From positions 1 through 17,437 of the forward strand of contig JBGCDR010000096.1 of NCBI GenBank assembly GCA_045105515.1: 17,437 bases of DNA, read 5' to 3'. Source of the DNA: Oligoflexales bacterium (lineage in GTDB: Bacteria; Bdellovibrionota_B; Oligoflexia; Oligoflexales; Bog-1112). Of this stretch, positions 3,187 through 12,618 are shown piece by piece. The translations under genes and the position numbers were made by a program. The number at the start of each line of letters is the position of its first letter. Position 1 is the stretch's first letter. The notes under the pieces are model-generated. The model saw only the letters and a list, made by a program, of their open reading frames with translations, did not search any database and was not told the DNA's origin.

Positions 3187-6100
3187 TTACTTTCGTATCA
3201 AGCTTTTTTTGATTTCTTCGAGGACAAGACCTTCTTGCTCGATCAGGTCATGGACAAAACAGAATATAGGATTCAAGCTAGGTTTCGCTCTTTGAAGTTG
3301 AAAGTAATAATCAATTACTTCATCAGCAGCCTGATCACCTGGAGCAAAGCAGCTTATATCCTTAATGCATAGGGACTTACCATCAAAACCAGGCTTTTTA
3401 TGACTAAGGATAAGGTCCACAGCATATTTAGGATTGCCAACAGTCTCACTATACTGAGCATGGAAGTTCTTCTTAATTAAGTCTTCTTGCAGCTCTCCTG
3501 AATCTCTATCCCAAAGAAACTTCACAAGTGAAAGCATCAGCTGACCACTTCCGCGATTAATTGGATGATCTTCTGTGGGCTCCTCTCTACGCATCTGCAT
3601 TTTAACGGCTTCTTCTTCATTCTGATTACCTTGAAAGGTACTCCACAAATAGTCTGATATAGAAGCTTTACCATGTGCTAAGTCACCAAAATTTTGATGG
3701 AGATAGTGGTATGCGCGCACTTTAGGCCGACTCATCAAAACATTTAGCTCACCTTTTCGTTTACTTTCATCATCCCCTTGCTTAAATGAAGCAAAATTGC
3801 CTTTGTAGCAGTCCCAGAAATAGAAAATAAAATCGCGTTCCTTTCCTTGCAAAGCAGCGCCAGCACCACTTAATATATCTCGTCCACGCTTCAATTTAGC
3901 TAGAAATTTTGATTTATTGTCATCGAAGTAAGCATTGTTTTTGAGCAAGAAATAGCAAATAGCCACATCTGTCTCTACGTTCACCTTCTTACCGAATTGT
4001 CTTTCAATTTGTTTAATTTCTTGGACAATAAACTCAAGAAAACGCTCGATCATATCAACATCAAGCCCCTTATAAGGACCTGAACTTGGTTTCTTACCTG
4101 CTTCTGCTTCCTTTTCACTATAATCAACGTACACTGCAGGGTAAGCGCCTTTTTTAAGCCACTGCATAATCTTAAGTTGGTCATTATAAACATACCGATT
4201 TGAATAAGAGATTATATCAGGAGGACAGCGGTAATGTTCATCCAGAAGCACCGAAGCTTGTTGAATATTCTTAAGCAAACCAAAAATATGGGAACCACCT
4301 CCCTTGATACTTGTGGCCTGAGCAGCTGCAAGATGCTCAGCAAGGTTAAACTCTTTGTAGAGGTAGTCATCCACTGCAGACTCTTTAGAAAGGACTGTCT
4401 GCTTATCATCACCTACGACCATGAGTTTCTCTGCTCTCAGTAGGAGGGGCAGCGTATCTTCAACACGACACTGAGTGGCTTCGTCGACAACAATTAAGTG
4501 AACTGACTTTTCTTTACAAGGCATAAGCAAAGGAACCACTTGTTTTCTGCAAACCCAGATTGGATAAGCTTCCCAAAGGCTTTCTTGCAACTGTGTTAAA
4601 GCATCTTGGCAACTTGCCAAATTTGGTGCTGCAGCAACTTGATCGCACAAAAAACTAATTTTTGTTTTTAGCGGGGTACGATCTCCCGTAAGAGTGCTGC
4701 TGAGAGTTTGACCTATGGTACCCAGGGCTTGAAAGACTTTTTCAGTAACCAAATGATCTTTCTTTTTTTGCAGCTGACTCAGTTCATTCAGTAGTTGAAA
4801 AGGAGTTTTACGATAAGCTCTGGGTTCCTGTCTTTTTAGCTTTTTCTTTAAGGCAATTTTATAGAGGCATAATTCAAGAACTAAAGGAAAAGGCTCAGTA
4901 TGTGGATTAGGATCTAAAAAACGGTGAACTTTTTTAAATTCCTTTTTAATGGCATGCTCAAGAGGCTCTAGGGCATTTATAAGAAATTTATGTTCAAGCA
5001 TTTTTTCGTTTAGCAATTGTACATTCCGATGCAAAGGATACTTAAAACCTCTTTTAAGTTTTTCTTTGAAGGCCTTGAACCATGACTGATTCGGGGGGCT
5101 CAACTCGTTGAATAAATCTGCAAAGACTTTAGTGAGGTATTCATTTCCCAGCTCGGTGAGAGCATCAATTAACTCTTCACAATTTGTTGGTCTTAGGGTT
5201 TCAATAGTCATTATAGCTTTTTCTAGAATTTCAAAACTATGCTTTTGCTCGCTACCAGAAAAATTAAATTGAAAATAACGGTAATATGGTTTGCCTTCTT
5301 CCGTGCACAACCAATTACGCAACTTTATAAATCGTTCCGCAACCTCGACACCCGTCGTTTTTTTCTTGGTATAAGCATCGCGAAAAGACGAATCTAAAAA
5401 CTCAATAAAGCTCAGGAGATCATCAATATCCTTACGACTAGAAGGCTGCCCTCTTCTGGTTGCGGAACCGATCATTGCAGTTACTTCAGGATTGAGCTGA
5501 TCTTCCAAGAGTTCACCAAGCTCTTGTTTTACCTGCGTCCACTTATCGAGAATCTTCTCAAATTCCTGATCAATATCTTTAATTTTTGATGATTTTGGCC
5601 TTGGAGCAACTTCTGAGTCCAGGACTAATTGACTTTTTATTCTTTTCATCAGACCATCAAGGTTAAAAGAATCTTCTGGCAACTCTCCAATGCAAGGAAG
5701 GCAGCTCGTCCACAGCAGCTTCATTTCTTCTTTTTCACTTTCAGACTTTGCATAAGACAAAAAATACTCATGGAGTTTATCTACCAGGGCTTCTACTGCC
5801 GAAGCCCGATCACTGACCACCATCAGTCTTTTACCACTGCATAGAGCATCTATAACTAAGTTACGAATAGTATGGGTTTTACCAGTACCTGGAGGTCCTT
5901 CTAAAACTACCAGGTCATAAAGAGCAAGTCGGTTCATTAATTTCTTCATGCTTGGAGGGAGTGCTCCTGGCATCCAAGCTGCCTCGGGTTTGGGAGCTTC
6001 TTTGGACTCAAACGTCGATTGACCTTGAAGAAATAAACCTAAGAGAGAAGCATCAAAGCGGGGAATTTCATCCAGTGCTAGCTGCCAAATCTGATTAAGG

Positions 6101-7506
6101 TCAGTTTCTAGGGCCTGAGAAAGGACACTCAGATGCTTTTTACTTTTATAAAGGAAGACATCTTCAATATCACATTCAATGCCAATAACTTTCAAATCTG
6201 CAAGGATTCCCCGTTTGCCATCAGCACCAGCATCCCCCATAAGAATTTCTCTAGTTCGGGTAAAATACTCCTCGGCAACAGGAAAGCTGCGAGATAAGTA
6301 GACACGACTAATCTTTCCTCCAACCTCCATGTTCTGAGCCAATAGCGTCGAGAAAAATTGCTCGAGATTGTCTTTACTTGTCGATTTATTAAAAGTTTCC
6401 ACCAGATTAGCGAGTGCAAGATGATTAAGGTAAAACCTTCCGTCTTCAACTGGTTCAATATAAAGGATCCTATTTGCCTGCTTAAGTCCAACCTTCATAT
6501 AGTACAAGGGAAAGGTAAAGGACTTAAACTTTTTATCCTTCTTAAAGACTGCTTGTACCATTTCAAAACCAAGATAAAACTCGCTTTCCGCATCATTTAA
6601 GAAGTTTTTTCTCAGATTAGCAATTTCATCTGGATTAAACTCGCATTCGAGTGGATTCCCATCAAACTGCTTGACGGTCGAAGTTGTTAGAGTGAGTGGA
6701 TATTGGGAAACCGGACTGGTGCTAATTAGTTTTTCTTCTTTTTTTAAAGGGCTCTTACCAGCATGTGCTTGAGCTTGTAGGAGTGTTTCATAATTGACCT
6801 CATAGGGGCTACTTCCCGACCTCGCTCCTAATTTTGTTTCGAAATTTTTGACAGTTCCTGTCTTTTTTGTTGAAGCTTTTGTCCCCGAAGTTGGCAGAGG
6901 TGGCAACTTTGCCCCTTTCTTTAAGCTTGGGAGCTTCTGCTGTGGGACATCTCCTTCTTTTGCCAAACGTGGAGAATAGGAACTTATATGACTGAGAATT
7001 TCTTTACGCAGGGCTAAGTCACTATTCATGCTTTCCTGATTATCGATAAAAGTAAACTGAAATATCTTATGATAAGCAATAATACGATTTAATAGATCAT
7101 GAGGTTCCTTTAAATCTTTGTGATACAAAAGCTCAGCTAACTTGCCTAGTGATTTCTTGCTTATAGTCACAAAGCCAGTGGACGGTGTTCTAGGTGCTAT
7201 GTCATTGATGACAAATAACTCTGAATCATGACGATCTTGGTGAAACGAATATTTTTGCGTTTGTTTGTAGGAAAGGTACCGTATGCTGGCCGTTTTTTTT
7301 TCATCGGTAGCAAAATCTCTGACAAATGCACGAAACTTTTCAAATATAAACTTTTGTATCACAATTGCTTGGCGTTTGCTGAGATTTTCGAGAACAAAGA
7401 ATGCAAATCCAGCTTCGTCATGATTCTTAGTCAGCTGAAAGTTGGAAGCTCGATCAATCCTCATGGAAACTTTCTGCACTTTTTTCGATTTCTTCCAAAA
7501 ATTCAT
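3187..7506 (-). CDS. 1439-aa superfamily 1 (Upf1/DNA2-like, AAA_11/AAA_12) helicase with DUF4011-like region and degenerate C-terminal REase-like domain
   Basis: GPPGTGKT (5875-5898), IVVDEATQ (D at 4483-4485), VVGDDKQ, LDEHYRC, II.YSN.YVY, QGKERD and NVLMSR. The DUF4011-like and REase-like assignments are by-eye inferences. Confidence 0.85.
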   Translation of the reverse strand: MNFWKKSKKVQKVSMRIDRASNFQLTKNHDEAGFAFFVLENLSKRQAIVIQKFIFEKFRAFVRDFATDEKKTASIRYLSYKQTQKYSFHQDRHDSELFVINDIAPRTPSTGFVTISKKSLGKLAELLYHKDLKEPHDLLNRIIAYHKIFQFTFIDNQESMNSDLALRKEILSHISSYSPRLAKEGDVPQQKLPSLKKGAKLPPLPTSGTKASTKKTGTVKNFETKLGARSGSSPYEVNYETLLQAQAHAGKSPLKKEEKLISTSPVSQYPLTLTTSTVKQFDGNPLECEFNPDEIANLRKNFLNDAESEFYLGFEMVQAVFKKDKKFKSFTFPLYYMKVGLKQANRILYIEPVEDGRFYLNHLALANLVETFNKSTSKDNLEQFFSTLLAQNMEVGGKISRVYLSRSFPVAEEYFTRTREILMGDAGADGKRGILADLKVIGIECDIEDVFLYKSKKHLSVLSQALETDLNQIWQLALDEIPRFDASLLGLFLQGQSTFESKEAPKPEAAWMPGALPPSMKKLMNRLALYDLVVLEGPPGTGKTHTIRNLVIDALCSGKRLMVVSDRASAVEALVDKLHEYFLSYAKSESEKEEMKLLWTSCLPCIGELPEDSFNLDGLMKRIKSQLVLDSEVAPRPKSSKIKDIDQEFEKILDKWTQVKQELGELLEDQLNPEVTAMIGSATRRGQPSSRKDIDDLLSFIEFLDSSFRDAYTKKKTTGVEVAERFIKLRNWLCTEEGKPYYRYFQFNFSGSEQKHSFEILEKAIMTIETLRPTNCEELIDALTELGNEYLTKVFADLFNELSPPNQSWFKAFKEKLKRGFKYPLHRNVQLLNEKMLEHKFLINALEPLEHAIKKEFKKVHRFLDPNPHTEPFPLVLELCLYKIALKKKLKRQEPRAYRKTPFQLLNELSQLQKKKDHLVTEKVFQALGTIGQTLSSTLTGDRTPLKTKISFLCDQVAAAPNLASCQDALTQLQESLWEAYPIWVCRKQVVPLLMPCKEKSVHLIVVDEATQCRVEDTLPLLLRAEKLMVVGDDKQTVLSKESAVDDYLYKEFNLAEHLAAAQATSIKGGGSHIFGLLKNIQQASVLLDEHYRCPPDIISYSNRYVYNDQLKIMQWLKKGAYPAVYVDYSEKEAEAGKKPSSGPYKGLDVDMIERFLEFIVQEIKQIERQFGKKVNVETDVAICYFLLKNNAYFDDNKSKFLAKLKRGRDILSGAGAALQGKERDFIFYFWDCYKGNFASFKQGDDESKRKGELNVLMSRPKVRAYHYLHQNFGDLAHGKASISDYLWSTFQGNQNEEEAVKMQMRREEPTEDHPINRGSGQLMLSLVKFLWDRDSGELQEDLIKKNFHAQYSETVGNPKYAVDLILSHKKPGFDGKSLCIKDISCFAPGDQAADEVIDYYFQLQRAKPSLNPIFCFVHDLIEQEGLVLEEIKKSLIRK

Positions 7507-7536
7507 AAACTTACCTAAACCCTATTTTCCGTTGTC

Positions 7537-8175
7537 CTAGTGGACTAAAATTGAAACTCTTCTATTTGCTGCTCTAGCTTGTTCTAGACGCTTATCTTTT
7601 TTACCAGCTATACTTACCTTTGGTCTTGTTGCAGCATAACCAACTATCCGTAGACGATTTTCTTCAAAACCAAACGCGATTAAGTGATGCAAAACAGAAC
7701 TTGCTCTCAGACCACTCAGGGACCAGTTAGTTTCTAGTAACTTCTCCCGGTAACGATAAAGCCCCTGATCATCGGTATGCCCTTCCACATCGAGGATATA
7801 CTTGGTGCCTTTTATTCGGCTAAGAATTGGTCCGAGAGGAGCTAGACCGTCCTCTCGGACAATAGCCGAACTCACCTCAAACAAGGCTGTAGTTTCCATG
7901 TTGATACGAACTCCATCTGAATCATAACTAATATTTACATCCTTAATGTCCTTTGCTATATCCTTAAGATCATCAGCTAATTCCACGAGACTACCTGCAG
8001 AAACACCAGTTAACTCTGTTCTCACCCGTTCAAAAGATCCAACATCAACCTTACTAATACTGTGAATCAACACAAAAAAGCAGCATAAGATCACCATCAA
8101 ATCGCCAAAGCTCATATAAAATGAGCTCGCTCCCAATTCTTCTCGATCTCGATCAACTAGCTCTGCCATCCTCAT
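7537..8175 (-). CDS. MotB/PomB/ZorB-like stator B subunit with OmpA-type peptidoglycan-binding domain
   Basis: TM segment SFGDLMVILCCFFVLI with the conserved ion-binding Asp, plug-like SKVDVGSFERV, EGHTDD, NWSLSGLRASSV, GYAATRP and NRRVSI. ATG at 8175 (1 nt after the upstream stop, GGAAGG upstream) is preferred over TTG 8208. Confidence 0.88.
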   Translation of the reverse strand: MRMAELVDRDREELGASSFYMSFGDLMVILCCFFVLIHSISKVDVGSFERVRTELTGVSAGSLVELADDLKDIAKDIKDVNISYDSDGVRINMETTALFEVSSAIVREDGLAPLGPILSRIKGTKYILDVEGHTDDQGLYRYREKLLETNWSLSGLRASSVLHHLIAFGFEENRLRIVGYAATRPKVSIAGKKDKRLEQARAANRRVSILVH

Positions 8176-8176
8176 A

Positions 8177-8953
8177 TTATGCAACCTTCCCAAGCTTGCC
8201 TTTTTCAATGCTACGTTCGAAACGTTTAATCAGTATCGCAACTTTGCTGAGAAGCTGTCGGTGGGTTTCCACAAATTGTTCATTGCTTTGTTCTACCCTT
8301 CCTGCAAGGGGACTAATAACCAGAGAGGACAAACCTGAGCCGTAAGCTGTCGTCAGTAAAGCAAGGGACATTGAGGGCCCAATTAACGTTGGATCACTAA
8401 GGGATTTAAGCAAGGTAACCAGACCGATCACGGTACCAAAAAGCCCTAGAGAAGGAGCGAGAACACTAGCTCTTTGCAGAATGACAACACTGGTCCTGCG
8501 TCTGAAAAATAAGTCCTGCACCCGAGAAGTAATAAATTCATCGATTTCTTCAAAGCTCAAATACTGCTTGACCATGTACACACAATCGTTAAGTATCTCA
8601 CCATTGATCTCAGTTGCTTCTCTCAATTCAGTTATATCGATCTGATTAACGATTGCATGGTCCAATTGTGATAGCGTTTCCAACATTTCTTTCTCTGGCT
8701 TGCCTCGGAACGACTGCAAAACATCAATCATACAGCGCCAGCAAGAAGCAAAATCATATTGAATGATTAGACTGGCTGTGGTTCCACCTGCCACAATGAT
8801 CAAACTTTTAAGATCCCAGAAAACCCTAAGATCTGCTCCGCCTGTAATCACATAAATCAAGTAACTTAGTAAGCCAGTTCCGACTAAAAAAGCCAATGGA
8901 TCAAATCGCTTTCGAGACGTATGAATGTATTTCTTCTGTTTTAAACCTTCCAT
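8177..8953 (-). CDS. MotA/PomA-like stator A subunit (MotA/TolQ/ExbB family)
   Basis: N-terminal TM pair with D..SLIIVAGGT, and C-terminal TM pair APSLGLFGTVIGLV...LSDP..IGPSMSLALLTTAYG...PLA. The 258-aa length is that of a stator subunit without a long tail. Confidence 0.88.
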   Translation of the reverse strand: MEGLKQKKYIHTSRKRFDPLAFLVGTGLLSYLIYVITGGADLRVFWDLKSLIIVAGGTTASLIIQYDFASCWRCMIDVLQSFRGKPEKEMLETLSQLDHAIVNQIDITELREATEINGEILNDCVYMVKQYLSFEEIDEFITSRVQDLFFRRRTSVVILQRASVLAPSLGLFGTVIGLVTLLKSLSDPTLIGPSMSLALLTTAYGSGLSSLVISPLAGRVEQSNEQFVETHRQLLSKVAILIKRFERSIEKGKLGKVA

Positions 8954-10062
8954 TAATTCACTTCCTTTAATCCTTCATATGAAGAAGGATTTTCCTCATT
9001 TTTCGAGTTTAAACTTTCCTGCAGCTGACTCGAGGCTATGGCTTCAGTCACCATATCCTTAGTCCAACTTTTTACTTGCTCAATTTTTTGAAATTTTATT
9101 AAGTCGTCTTCAAAAAAAGATAAAAGCATAAACTGCCCAACTTTAAGATCTTCAAGAAGATGGATTTCATATTCATTTGCGGGTTTGATTTGCCAATATC
9201 CAAACTCTTGAATTCTTACCTTCAAGATACCTTGCGAGTTAGTAGCCACCACAAGTCCTAGGTATTGTTTAAAAGAACCGATGTCATCCTGGGTAAAAAT
9301 AATATCAACTCCACTTTTTTTGGCCATTGTTCTAATTGCACATGGCTCACCTGTTTTGGGAAAACCCCGCAAAAAAACAAAAGGTACTTTAAAATGTTGT
9401 CTACCTGATTTAACCAGCAAGAAGCGCTGATCTAGTTCAATACGATGAACCGTTCCTACCCGAATATCGAGGTCTTTGTGATACTCTTGTTGAACATCTC
9501 CACCCCCTTCACCATCTTTTCTAGCTAGGACATGTTCCAAGTACTTAACTTGTTCGCTTAAGTCCTTAAGCTCTTTTTTCTGCTTGTCTATAAGTTGATC
9601 TTTTTCTTTTAATACCTTCACCTGCTCTTTGTCTTTTGGTCCGAGTTTTTTATCATCTAAGGACCTTAGCTCTTGGTAGAATAGGTCTAATAAAAATCCA
9701 GATTTTCCTTTAGACGGCATATAAAAGCTAATTGCAGGTAGAAAGCGCCTTGCATGCATATTTGGTTCAGGCCTATCCGATTTGGTTTGAACTATATTTC
9801 CAAACCATAAGCTATCTAGTGTAGCTAGGACATTTTCTATATTTAGATCGTAGCCATGTGCAGTGAGGATTTTTTTTATTAGAGCAATAGCACTTTTATT
9901 TTGTCCATAATCGATGCTTGCCCAAAAAAGTTGCACGTCTTTTTCATAGCTTGCTTTTGATAAGGATTGGTCAAACTGTGCAGAAGAAAAATCACAGTCA
10001 TCATCTTCTAATGCCAGATACAGATTTGGTCCTAACTTTCTGATAAGCACCCTCCAAGGCAT
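8953..10062 (-). CDS. Hypothetical cytoplasmic protein with central coiled coil and two putative OB-like beta domains
   Basis: 369-aa ORF whose stop overlaps the motA-like start (TAATG at 8955-8951). Heptad-rich KEQVKVLKEKDQLIDKQKKELKDLSEQVKYLEHVLARK, and no TM or signal segment is visible. Confidence 0.8.
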   Translation of the reverse strand: MPWRVLIRKLGPNLYLALEDDDCDFSSAQFDQSLSKASYEKDVQLFWASIDYGQNKSAIALIKKILTAHGYDLNIENVLATLDSLWFGNIVQTKSDRPEPNMHARRFLPAISFYMPSKGKSGFLLDLFYQELRSLDDKKLGPKDKEQVKVLKEKDQLIDKQKKELKDLSEQVKYLEHVLARKDGEGGGDVQQEYHKDLDIRVGTVHRIELDQRFLLVKSGRQHFKVPFVFLRGFPKTGEPCAIRTMAKKSGVDIIFTQDDIGSFKQYLGLVVATNSQGILKVRIQEFGYWQIKPANEYEIHLLEDLKVGQFMLLSFFEDDLIKFQKIEQVKSWTKDMVTEAIASSQLQESLNSKNEENPSSYEGLKEVN

Positions 10063-11583: not shown

Positions 11584-12618
11584 ATGAAGTTTAAAGACTA
11601 TAATCACAATTTCTTTTCGGAATTCTTTTATCCTATCAATCAGCAAGTAACCTACCACGAAATTCTATATAATAGAGTTTTTACCCCTGTACTAGATCAG
11701 CAAAACAGTGTAACCCTTATCAGACTTAACAAACAGGCCTTGGAAGGTTACCTCAATGTGGTAGGTAAAAAATTGGTATTTTGTTCCAGAGCAAACCCAA
11801 ACTTGCACTTTACTAGTGGTGAGACGGTAATAATTTCCATGTATTTTCAAGGGCAGACTTTCTACTGCCAGGCTCGGTTTGACTCAATTCAAAACCACGT
11901 CAATGGCAAATCCTTTGAACTAACCCTAGCTCCTCCCCATAGCTCACGCTACTACAAGCGATTCGAGCTGGAAGCACCTGCTGTTATCAGTGAGGTTCCT
12001 CTTAATGTGGTAGACAAACTGCTAGTAGGCACCCATAGATTGAGAAGGTTTAGGGGACGCAATAGTAAAACTAGTAAAAATTTTACTATCTGCGAGGATT
12101 ACCTTGCGGACAATAAAACCCATAATTTAAAACACATGGTGCAAAGAAATTCCCCTTTGCTTTCCGGAAAGATCGTCAATATTTCCCAGGGTGGTTGTCA
12201 AATTATTTTAGATGGTGAAAGTACTCAGTTTGCTAAGGAATTGAGAAATGATTCTATCATCTATATTCAGACTAGCTTGACATGGGGACGTCTCTCCTCA
12301 TCGATTCGAAGCCTAGCACATGTTAAAACATGTAAACAATTGCAAAATACTATCAAACTACATTGTGCGTTCATCGACAACCTACCGCGCATACCACATA
12401 AGCTAAAATATTTAGATTACCAATTCCTCCTCAGATTTGGTGAACCTGTATCCATAAAACTCAATAACAAACATAAATTGATACTCCAATCAGAAGGAGC
12501 GGTCAGACTTCCTTTAGGAATTCATGATATAGAGATCAGATGGTCCAGCGGGAGGATATCTAACCAACGCCTTGATTTACGTAACTACAACCACAACGTC
12601 TTGACTTTTAGGCACTAG
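11584..12618 (+). CDS. PilZ-domain protein (putative c-di-GMP effector, YcgR-like layout)
   Basis: RxxxR motif (RYYKR) after a beta-rich N-terminal domain, and (D/N)xSxxG motif (NISQGG). Confidence 0.65.
   Translation: MKFKDYNHNFFSEFFYPINQQVTYHEILYNRVFTPVLDQQNSVTLIRLNKQALEGYLNVVGKKLVFCSRANPNLHFTSGETVIISMYFQGQTFYCQARFDSIQNHVNGKSFELTLAPPHSSRYYKRFELEAPAVISEVPLNVVDKLLVGTHRLRRFRGRNSKTSKNFTICEDYLADNKTHNLKHMVQRNSPLLSGKIVNISQGGCQIILDGESTQFAKELRNDSIIYIQTSLTWGRLSSSIRSLAHVKTCKQLQNTIKLHCAFIDNLPRIPHKLKYLDYQFLLRFGEPVSIKLNNKHKLILQSEGAVRLPLGIHDIEIRWSSGRISNQRLDLRNYNHNVLTFRH

Follow-up and report, generated by a model that had tools for sequence, protein, structure and literature searches.

Introduction

What could an ion-driven motor of the MotA/MotB type be working on when its genes lie directly upstream of a gene for a giant helicase? 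The question is raised by a 17,437-nt stretch of an Oligoflexales metagenome-assembled genome (MAG), hereafter the window, in whose positions all features are given. Four co-oriented open reading frames (ORFs) on the minus strand span positions 3187-10062 and are transcribed in the order gene 1, motA, motB, helicase; all features of these genes named below lie on that strand. The original prediction, made from the sequence, took them for a candidate Zorya-like system in which a MotAB-type motor is joined by an adaptor to a superfamily 1 (SF1) helicase. We find that the four genes travel as a cassette through three phyla, and we consider it very probable that they encode a non-flagellar motor-helicase machine. 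Whether this machine serves, by analogy, to defend the cell against phages or other nucleic acid that enters it is an evenly balanced question.

A conserved four-gene cassette

The genes are tightly packed. Gene 1 and motA overlap at a TAATG, motA and motB are separated by one nucleotide (TAA-t-ATG), and 30 nt lie between the MotB stop codon and the helicase ATG; across the family the median junctions are -1, -4 and +14 nt. The co-orientation and tight junctions described in the original prediction are thus borne out by the ORF coordinates and the junction sequences, as is its statement that the window holds no flagellar, TonB or Tol gene, none being found with Pfam among the 13 ORFs of 150 aa or more.

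The same arrangement is present elsewhere. In all nine relatives whose flanks were fetched, motA, motB and the helicase gene are adjacent and a co-oriented ORF of 342-414 aa lies 5' of motA, with homology to gene 1 detected by tblastn in seven of the nine. A survey by pattern scan, with one genome per species, gave 71 loci from the Bdellovibrionota, Myxococcota and Gammaproteobacteria, the cultured carriers among them being Oligoflexus tunisiensis, Exilibacterium tricleocarpae, Pleionea sediminis and Microbulbifer rhizosphaerae. motA and motB are found directly upstream of the helicase gene in 57 of these loci; in the other 14 either the helicase match is cut short or its start is no more than about 250 nt from the end of a contig, and two of these retain a partial motB. 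The synteny of helicase and motor pair that the original prediction looked for in other genomes was thus found, the exceptions being loci cut by contig ends. Of the 57 loci that have motA, motB and the helicase gene, 51 also carry a gene 1 homologue 5' of motA. The reverse search, starting from MotA, gave at least 13 cassette-type loci (35-53% identity), all 13 with gene 1 and 11 with the helicase, the remaining two being cut by contig ends; among the matches listed, the four-gene form was the sole form of the cassette. Compared with the copy from the same genus (locus L024), the proportion of differing nonsynonymous sites (pN) is 0.06-0.10 and that of synonymous sites (pS) 0.70-0.89 across all four genes, all of which are, judging from this comparison, under purifying selection. 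Because of the synteny (9/9 and 57/71), the tight junctions and the purifying selection, the four genes are regarded as one conserved, rigid unit. Chance adjacency of the motor pair and the helicase was considered, but the synteny counts exclude it.

With the helicase as query, 213 matches were obtained among 5.8 billion proteins, from sources named as Oligoflexales, Bdellovibrionota, Halobacteriovoraceae, Myxococcota and Gammaproteobacteria. The best 120 of the 213 are all 1385-1468 aa long, with 35-100% identity and 97-100% query coverage. Presence is very patchy: of 41 genomes in the order, 12 encode a full-length helicase, as do 2 of 58 Microbulbifer species genomes. Identity of the module across the three phyla is roughly constant at 35-40%, and what flanks the cassette changes between families, as seen in the 18 loci to which Pfam was applied. 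The taxon labels of many carriers, being those of metagenome bins, may be wrong.

Some individual loci show peculiarities. Between the window and L024 the synonymous differences of three genes exceed 0.75, the value at saturation, so that dN/dS is not computable for these three, while the proteins are 81-92% identical; this is a sign that the two members of one "genus" are very deeply diverged or differ by a shift in codon usage. Shortened helicase ORFs occur in L050 (1127 aa), L063 (455 aa), L071 (1304 aa) and L085 (1111 aa), and gene 1 of L027 has 131 aa; frameshifts, decay of the copies or assembly errors in metagenome bins may lie behind this. Cassettes are also present on contigs labelled Polynucleobacter, Bacteroides and Exilibacterium (L039, L085, L133 and L027/L131). 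In the tree described below, the MotAs of L039 and L085 fall among Bdellovibrionota-type copies, L027/L131 and L133 being outside the tree sample, and the MotA of L027/L131 is 51% identical to that of the window, compared with 41-44% for other gammaproteobacterial loci. The odd labels reflect either gene transfer or unreliable bin labels. A search of genome and metagenome contigs gave no locus for P0140, the helicase branch that diverges most. A separate group of MotA-like proteins (L141-L147), which are 23-29% identical to the cassette MotA and come from Marinamargulisbacteria, Neomarinimicrobiota and Lentisphaeria bins, has a MotB nearby in most cases and a helicase or gene 1 in none.

A motor pair of the stator lineage

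MotA (gene 2; 8177..8953; 258 aa; Pfam MotA_ExbB, PF01618, 4e-17) has four transmembrane helices and about 30-45 residues after the fourth, and members of the family are 253-287 aa long. At the N terminus it carries a cytoplasmic extension (residues ~1-25, nt 8879-8953) with the family-specific consensus KKYLxxxxKRFDP. Its best PDB matches are flagellar MotA (8ucs/6ysf, 7e-22), 8gqy (8e-20) and PomA (1.5e-17), while the same search gave no match to ZorA and reached TolQ only at an E-value of 0.84. The best NCBIfam models are MotP and PomA, with 92-107 bits, far below the cut-offs of 341-394. The original description of the A subunit as short and PomA-like agrees with this length and with these matches. 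The equivalents of E. coli MotA P173 and P222 are kept in all 37 cassette MotAs analysed.

MotB (gene 3; 7537..8175; 212 aa from the ATG) matches the Pfam models MotB_plug (1e-7) and OmpA (2.4e-11), and its best PDB matches are PomB and MotB. The channel aspartate D25 (nt 8101-8103), in the motif SFGD, lies in the transmembrane helix that follows the plug helix, and an OmpA-like peptidoglycan-binding domain occupies residues 98-193 (nt 7597-7884). The position aligned with E. coli MotB D32 is Asp in 58 of 58 cassette MotBs, and the ion path looks intact.

The A subunits were placed in a quick maximum-likelihood tree of 78 sequences, 37 of them from cassettes; it also holds paralogues of the window genome and of five carrier genomes, together with E. 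coli MotA, TolQ and ExbB. An ExbB/TolQ half is split from a MotA half with a support of 100, and the 37 cassette MotAs form one clade (Shimodaira-Hasegawa-like approximate likelihood ratio test, SH-aLRT, 100) on a long branch (1.74) inside the MotA half. A Ton, Tol or gliding motor was rejected, since the tree and the PDB scores place the pair with MotA/PomA. The phylogeny that was to accompany the original prediction gives a divided answer: the pair groups with flagellar stators and not with ExbB/TolQ, but it does so as a separate, long-branched clade that lacks the R90-type residue. In E. coli MotA, R90 and E98 form a conserved charged pair that contacts FliG. Only 3 of the 37 cassette MotAs have R in the R90 column, and all 37 are gapped at the E98 column, the loop alignment being uncertain by about one residue; the FliG-contact surface of flagellar stators is therefore not kept.

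It would be simplest to see in the pair an extra set of flagellar stators, with the helicase and gene 1 merely co-transcribed or regulating motility. Sequence and tree do put the pair in the MotA/PomA and MotB/PomB lineage. The window genome is flagellated, with FliG, FlhA and ten MotA/ExbB-family genes, and FliG is present in four of five named carriers and five of five Myxococcota carriers. Against this, two Microbulbifer carriers (G041 and G084) have no match to FliG_C or FliM, and G084 also has none to FHIPEP; no flagellar gene lies beside the cassette in any locus examined; and the window genome already has canonical paralogues (C82 and C178) that keep both R90 and E98. Together with the rarity of the R90-type residue and the separate, long-branched clade, these points make an extra stator set very improbable. 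Since two Microbulbifer carriers lack FliG and FliM, the cassette motor pair belongs to the stator lineage but is not a flagellar stator.

One further A-subunit relative in the window genome was checked as a possible ZorA. It is a 398-aa protein (C95:5836-7032; L170) with a weak MotA_ExbB match (7e-6), and neither it nor any of its six neighbours had a PADLOC match at E <=1e-8.

The helicase

Gene 4 (3187..7506) encodes a 1439-aa Upf1-like SF1B helicase that matches AAA_11 (2e-11) and, below the Pfam cut-off, AAA_12 (8e-4). Its N- and C-terminal regions are unique, and the family aligns over the whole length, with a mean column identity of 50%. The Walker A motif GPPGTGKT (residues 537-544, 5875..5898) is invariant in the family, and the Walker B motif DEATQ (residues 1008-1012, 4471..4485) is followed by GDDKQT, HYRCPP, GAGAALQGKERD and NVLMSRPK; among 47 sequences GPPGTGKT, DEATQ, GDDKQT, YRCPP, QGKERD and LMSRPK are invariant or nearly so. 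A PDB profile search gave IGHMBP2 (1e-11), then Sen1, Upf1/NAM7 and DNA2, in each case over the motif regions only. The Pfam models, the motifs and the PDB matches leave the original assignment to the Upf1-like SF1 helicases standing. Between Walker A and Walker B, RecA domain 1 contains a poorly conserved insertion of about 380 aa (residues ~600-980, 4567..5709).

The N-terminal 520 residues have no Pfam match at E <=5 and no PDB profile match at E <=10. An AlphaFold 2 (AF2) model of this region, built with 47 homologues, has a mean predicted local distance difference test score (pLDDT) of 78.4 and a predicted template modelling score (pTM) of 0.76; like all of our structure models, it is a monomer prediction. 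Residues 8-139 (7090..7485) are predicted to form a domain of the Pur-alpha type (PUR repeat/Whirly class). VIA-align matched them to Pur-alpha repeats I-II (3k44_A) with a Z score of 12.4 and a root-mean-square deviation (rmsd) of 3.0 over 123 of 145 aligned residues, the next row scoring 8.8, and Foldseek found human PURA (1.4e-4) with template-modelling scores of 0.54-0.61 on the target. Pur-alpha-like domains in known members bind single-stranded nucleic acid, and in the model the helicase starts with such a domain, a putative single-strand binder. A low-complexity linker predicted to be disordered follows (residues 182-263, 6718..6963; pLDDT <50). Beyond it lies a second, well-conserved alpha/beta domain (residues 268-495, 6022..6705) with pLDDT mostly 85-96, for which there was no convincing structural match, single-domain matches being weak within the 520-residue model and the lists being dominated by other domains; this does not make it a new fold. 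A profile of the Pur-like module and the second domain found only 58 representatives in 1.84 billion representative proteins; 28 of them are 1304-1461 aa long and the other 30, of 50-751 aa, are presumed to be fragments.

At the other end of the protein there is a conserved C-terminal domain (residues 1300-1439, 3190..3609) with invariant D1364, D1383, F1402, Q1403 and R1406. A language-model search with the C-terminal 140 residues gave a DUF559/MTES_1575 endonuclease-like lead (score 0.90, 170 shared features), so that the domain is possibly a diverged restriction-endonuclease-like fold of this kind, not confirmed as such. The DUF559 and MTES_1575 Pfam models matched the C terminus of none of 47 members at E <=10, and the PDB profile search gave only an irrelevant match at 0.013. 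Because of these two results we do not call the protein a helicase-nuclease.

The gene 1 protein

Gene 1 (8953..10062) encodes a 369-aa cytoplasmic protein of no known family, for which Pfam, NCBIfam and PADLOC gave no match. In this respect the original label of an unknown adaptor holds, but its gene is the first of the operon, upstream of motA, and does not stand between motor and helicase. The AF2 model, built with 51 homologues, has a mean pLDDT of 85.2 and a pTM of 0.43. It predicts an alpha/beta domain (residues 1-139, 9646..10062) with invariant N74, E76, N77, P116, G122 and Y129, a long single helix by DSSP, a coiled-coil candidate (residues 142-184, 9511..9639), two tandem barrels resembling oligonucleotide/oligosaccharide-binding (OB) or cold-shock domains (residues 196-260 and 264-328, 9079..9477), and a C-terminal helix after the barrels. 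With VIA-align the best chain was EF-P (6s8z_A; Z 8.5, rmsd 6.2, 98 aligned), followed by many cold-shock domain (CSD), SSB, ligase-OB and PAN N-domain chains with Z scores of 6-7.6 and rmsd of about 2-3 over some 60 residues; the best Foldseek match was Unr CSD1-2 (2.3e-3). The modelled barrels are therefore a moderate match to OB/cold-shock domains, at the level of the fold only. Residues 1-139 gave no fold match, although this is a weak test since the search lists were filled by OB domains, and it is no sign of a new fold. An atlas search with gene 1 gave no usable match.

Comparison with known systems

Zorya types I-III combine a ZorA5B2 motor with ZorC and ZorD, with ZorE, or with ZorF and ZorG. 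The cassette resembles them in having an inner-membrane pair of the MotAB family whose B subunit binds peptidoglycan and has the channel Asp, in encoding this pair in one operon with a helicase and a soluble protein predicted to bind nucleic acid, and in being self-contained and patchy. The differences lie in the A subunit, the helicase, gene 1 and the gene order. The cassette MotA is tail-less and belongs to the flagellar MotA/PomA branch, whereas ZorA is long-tailed, and no PADLOC family matched the cassette MotA at E <=0.1. The ZorB models did match MotB (4e-13 to 3e-6), but the flagellar MotD, MotB and MotS models matched it better (8e-28), and its channel Asp and OmpA domain are common to all MotB-like proteins. 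The PADLOC models of ZorC, ZorD, ZorE, ZorF and ZorG had no match in gene 1 or the helicase at E <=0.1; the cassette helicase is Upf1-like and of SF1, while ZorD is an SNF2 protein with an Mrr nuclease; and the gene order differs, with gene 1 having no ZorC match. PMC11946911 describes a pentameric tail of about 70 nm on ZorA5B2, long ZorA tails in all Zorya subtypes, and a loss of defence with all ZorA tail truncations. The original claim that the system is distinct from Zorya is thus upheld by the short A subunit, the SF1 helicase and the lack of ZorA, C, D, E, F or G matches. By membership the module is not Zorya, though by analogy the same principle of action may apply.

In both sequence and tree, the closest relatives of the cassette pair are the flagellar stators MotAB, PomAB and MotPS, with which it has in common the four transmembrane helices, both prolines, the plug, the channel Asp, the OmpA-like domain and a similar size. 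It departs from them in forming a distinct, long-branched clade, in not conserving the FliG-contact Arg, in the deletion of the acidic column in the alignment and in the added N-terminal cytoplasmic extension of MotA, and its NCBIfam equivalog scores are all far below cut-offs.

The helicase can be compared with the defence helicases Hhe, Mokosh MkoA/MkoC, PDC-S37, ProA and PLuB, which are likewise large proteins with an AAA_11/AAA_12 core and extra N- and C-terminal domains. Partial matches to these helicases were the best in PADLOC and NCBIfam, at 1e-10 to 1e-20 (MkoC 3e-20, PDC-S37, Hhe, ProA, PLuB). To our knowledge, no MotAB pair is part of the Hhe, Mokosh, PDC-S37, ProA or PLuB systems. 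Membership in Hhe, a defence protein with a DUF4011 N-domain, a helicase and a Vsr/DUF559-type C-terminal nuclease, was rejected: the NCBIfam model scored 61.6 bits, on motif stretches only, against a cut-off of 2000, the N-terminal 520 residues had no Pfam match, and DUF559/MTES_1575 matched the C terminus in 0 of 47 members.

Two further likenesses are to folds only, with no detectable sequence similarity and without certainty on function or oligomeric state. Modelled helicase residues 8-139 match the Pur-alpha fold (Z 12.4), and gene 1, in which the candidate coiled coil precedes an OB-like barrel, is reminiscent of the N-domains of PAN and Mpa (2wg5_A, Z 7.0; 3fp9_A, Z 6.3).

PADLOC 2.0.0 has no model for gene 1 or the cassette MotA. 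A description of a MotAB pair coupled to an SF1 helicase was not found in the full-text literature, the supplements and newer DefenseFinder models, where one is possible, being outside that search, and the word "helicase" is absent from the available part of the stator-evolution paper PMC12505986. No match to an already described system was thus found in PADLOC or the literature, and the module appears to be undescribed, as was first supposed.

Possible function of a proposed motor-helicase machine

In the mechanism that we propose, MotA and MotB would build a peptidoglycan-anchored, ion-driven motor of the flagellar-stator lineage, presumably of the 5:2 type. This motor would no longer act on FliG; its cytoplasmic face would serve gene 1 and the helicase, to which it may be physically coupled. 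Following the logic of Zorya, a disturbance of the envelope could open the MotB plug and let the OmpA domain grip the wall. Ion flow would then turn MotA, and the helicase and OB protein would be recruited to the membrane or switched on there, where they might bind, unwind and clear the DNA or RNA of an invader. The explanation as a whole, machine and defence together, might as easily prove wrong as right. A more specific form of it is possible, though we hold it as tentative. Here the module would be a second, independent invention of motor-coupled immunity, in which a stator of the flagellar lineage was captured by an Upf1-like helicase, with rotation relayed through the coiled-coil/OB protein and not through a ZorA-type tail, and activating or mechanically assisting the helicase on nucleic acid that enters at the membrane; the target would perhaps be RNA or single-stranded DNA (ssDNA) rather than duplex DNA.

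Defence-like traits are the patchy spread across three phyla (2/58 in Microbulbifer, 12/41 in its own order) and the self-contained nature of the cassette in ever-changing surroundings. Some of these surroundings contain defence genes. Among 53 loci, with the two nearest ORFs on each side considered (175 of 179 ORFs scanned), a strong and specific PADLOC neighbour was found in three: MzaA (2e-76) and a DRT UG29-type reverse transcriptase (4.5e-44) directly beside the cassette in L075:9288-12939, a DpdE/ZorD-like SNF2 helicase (4e-117 and 3e-100), likewise directly beside it, in L048:2-2335, and PDC-S05 (5e-84) in L040. NERD proteins are encoded next door in L045, L051, L062 and L072, three of which are related Oligoflexus genomes. 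In a Halobacteriovoraceae MAG (L034:2466-9173; JACKAJ010000015.1) the cassette lies between rpsG and fusA, with an RpoC fragment upstream; its position inside the normally conserved str-operon region suggests an insertion.

Several observations weigh against a defence role. The three strong neighbours, as a raw count, are modest support from context. No integrase or transposase was seen in the 18 loci scanned with Pfam, and in the window and its same-genus relative the cassette keeps the same housekeeping context, between ferrochelatase and a gene for an aminotransferase IV. In the tree the MotAs group broadly by phylum, a pattern that is also compatible with a gene set inherited vertically over a long time and lost in places, as expected of some accessory function other than defence. 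The A subunit of 258 aa has no ZorA-like tail to carry a signal, a nuclease domain is not confirmed (Pfam 0/47), and the partial matches to defence helicases cover only generic SF1 motifs, far below the family cut-offs. For the defence-island context that the original prediction proposed to look for, there is modest evidence in 3 loci; 50 of the 53 have no strong defence neighbour. More generally, the motor pair and helicase of its Zorya-like candidate are indeed a conserved unit, and one distinct from Zorya, but neither an anti-phage role nor the sensing of an envelope breach is shown.

Two other functions for the machine have to be weighed. It could have a job outside defence, as a proton- or sodium-powered, wall-anchored station that handles the cell's own or imported nucleic acid; such a station may serve membrane-proximal RNA processing, or the uptake or clearing of ssDNA, in aquatic predatory and polymer-degrading bacteria. 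Modules of the Pur-alpha-like, cold-shock/OB-like and Upf1-like kinds are typical of RNA and single-strand metabolism, the context is one of housekeeping genes in most loci (50 of 53 without a strong defence neighbour) and is conserved within the window's genus, and sequence conservation is high across three phyla. However, a core process would hardly be expected to have so patchy a distribution, defence neighbourhoods do surround some of the loci, and in the loci examined the cassette is nowhere linked to a transport component (ComEC or a secretin, for example); on balance we consider a function of this kind unlikely. Somewhat less probable again is a variant by abortive infection, in which the helicase and OB protein would sense foreign nucleic acid in the cytoplasm and open the MotAB channel, so that an ion leak depolarises the cell and kills or arrests it, the motor itself being the effector. 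The conserved ion path and plug would suit this, as would the unconfirmed nuclease effector, and depolarisation was once proposed for Zorya; however, according to the Zorya paper that records this, the model was refuted in favour of direct defence (PMC11946911). A peptidoglycan-binding domain and a full stator-type cytoplasmic domain also exceed what a leak channel would need.

Other genes of the window

Among the sequencing runs listed as containing the stretch there was no RNA run; three DNA runs of one study contain it and may be its source. With Pfam, the rest of the window was seen to encode a sigma-54 activator fragment, a lipase-like hydrolase, a class IV aminotransferase, ferrochelatase, a weakly PilZ-like protein, an acyl-CoA thioesterase, a Met-zincin and a 7TMR-DISM protein. 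Some PilZ proteins bind MotA in other bacteria. The PilZ-like protein of the window (344 aa; 11584-12618, plus strand) is encoded two genes from the cassette and its PilZ match is sub-threshold (1.1e-3; 19.6 bits against a cut-off of 22.5); such a gene was not seen beside the cassettes of other families. A scan of the window for consensus promoters and terminators gave scores at background level.

Significance

Ion-driven 5:2 motors power flagella, Ton/Tol transport, gliding and type IX secretion, and Zorya immunity. The module would extend this list, in that here it would be the flagellar-type stator itself, and not the distant ZorAB branch, that was moved from FliG to a helicase. Direct tests of its function are feasible, as cultured carriers exist and key residues are at hand in MotB D25 and helicase K543. 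If the cassette does not serve defence, it points to a new use of membrane energy in the handling of RNA or DNA. If it does, evolution would have coupled an envelope motor to nucleic-acid effectors of the cytoplasm on at least two occasions, and the cassette would offer a tail-less system in which to ask how rotation is read out.

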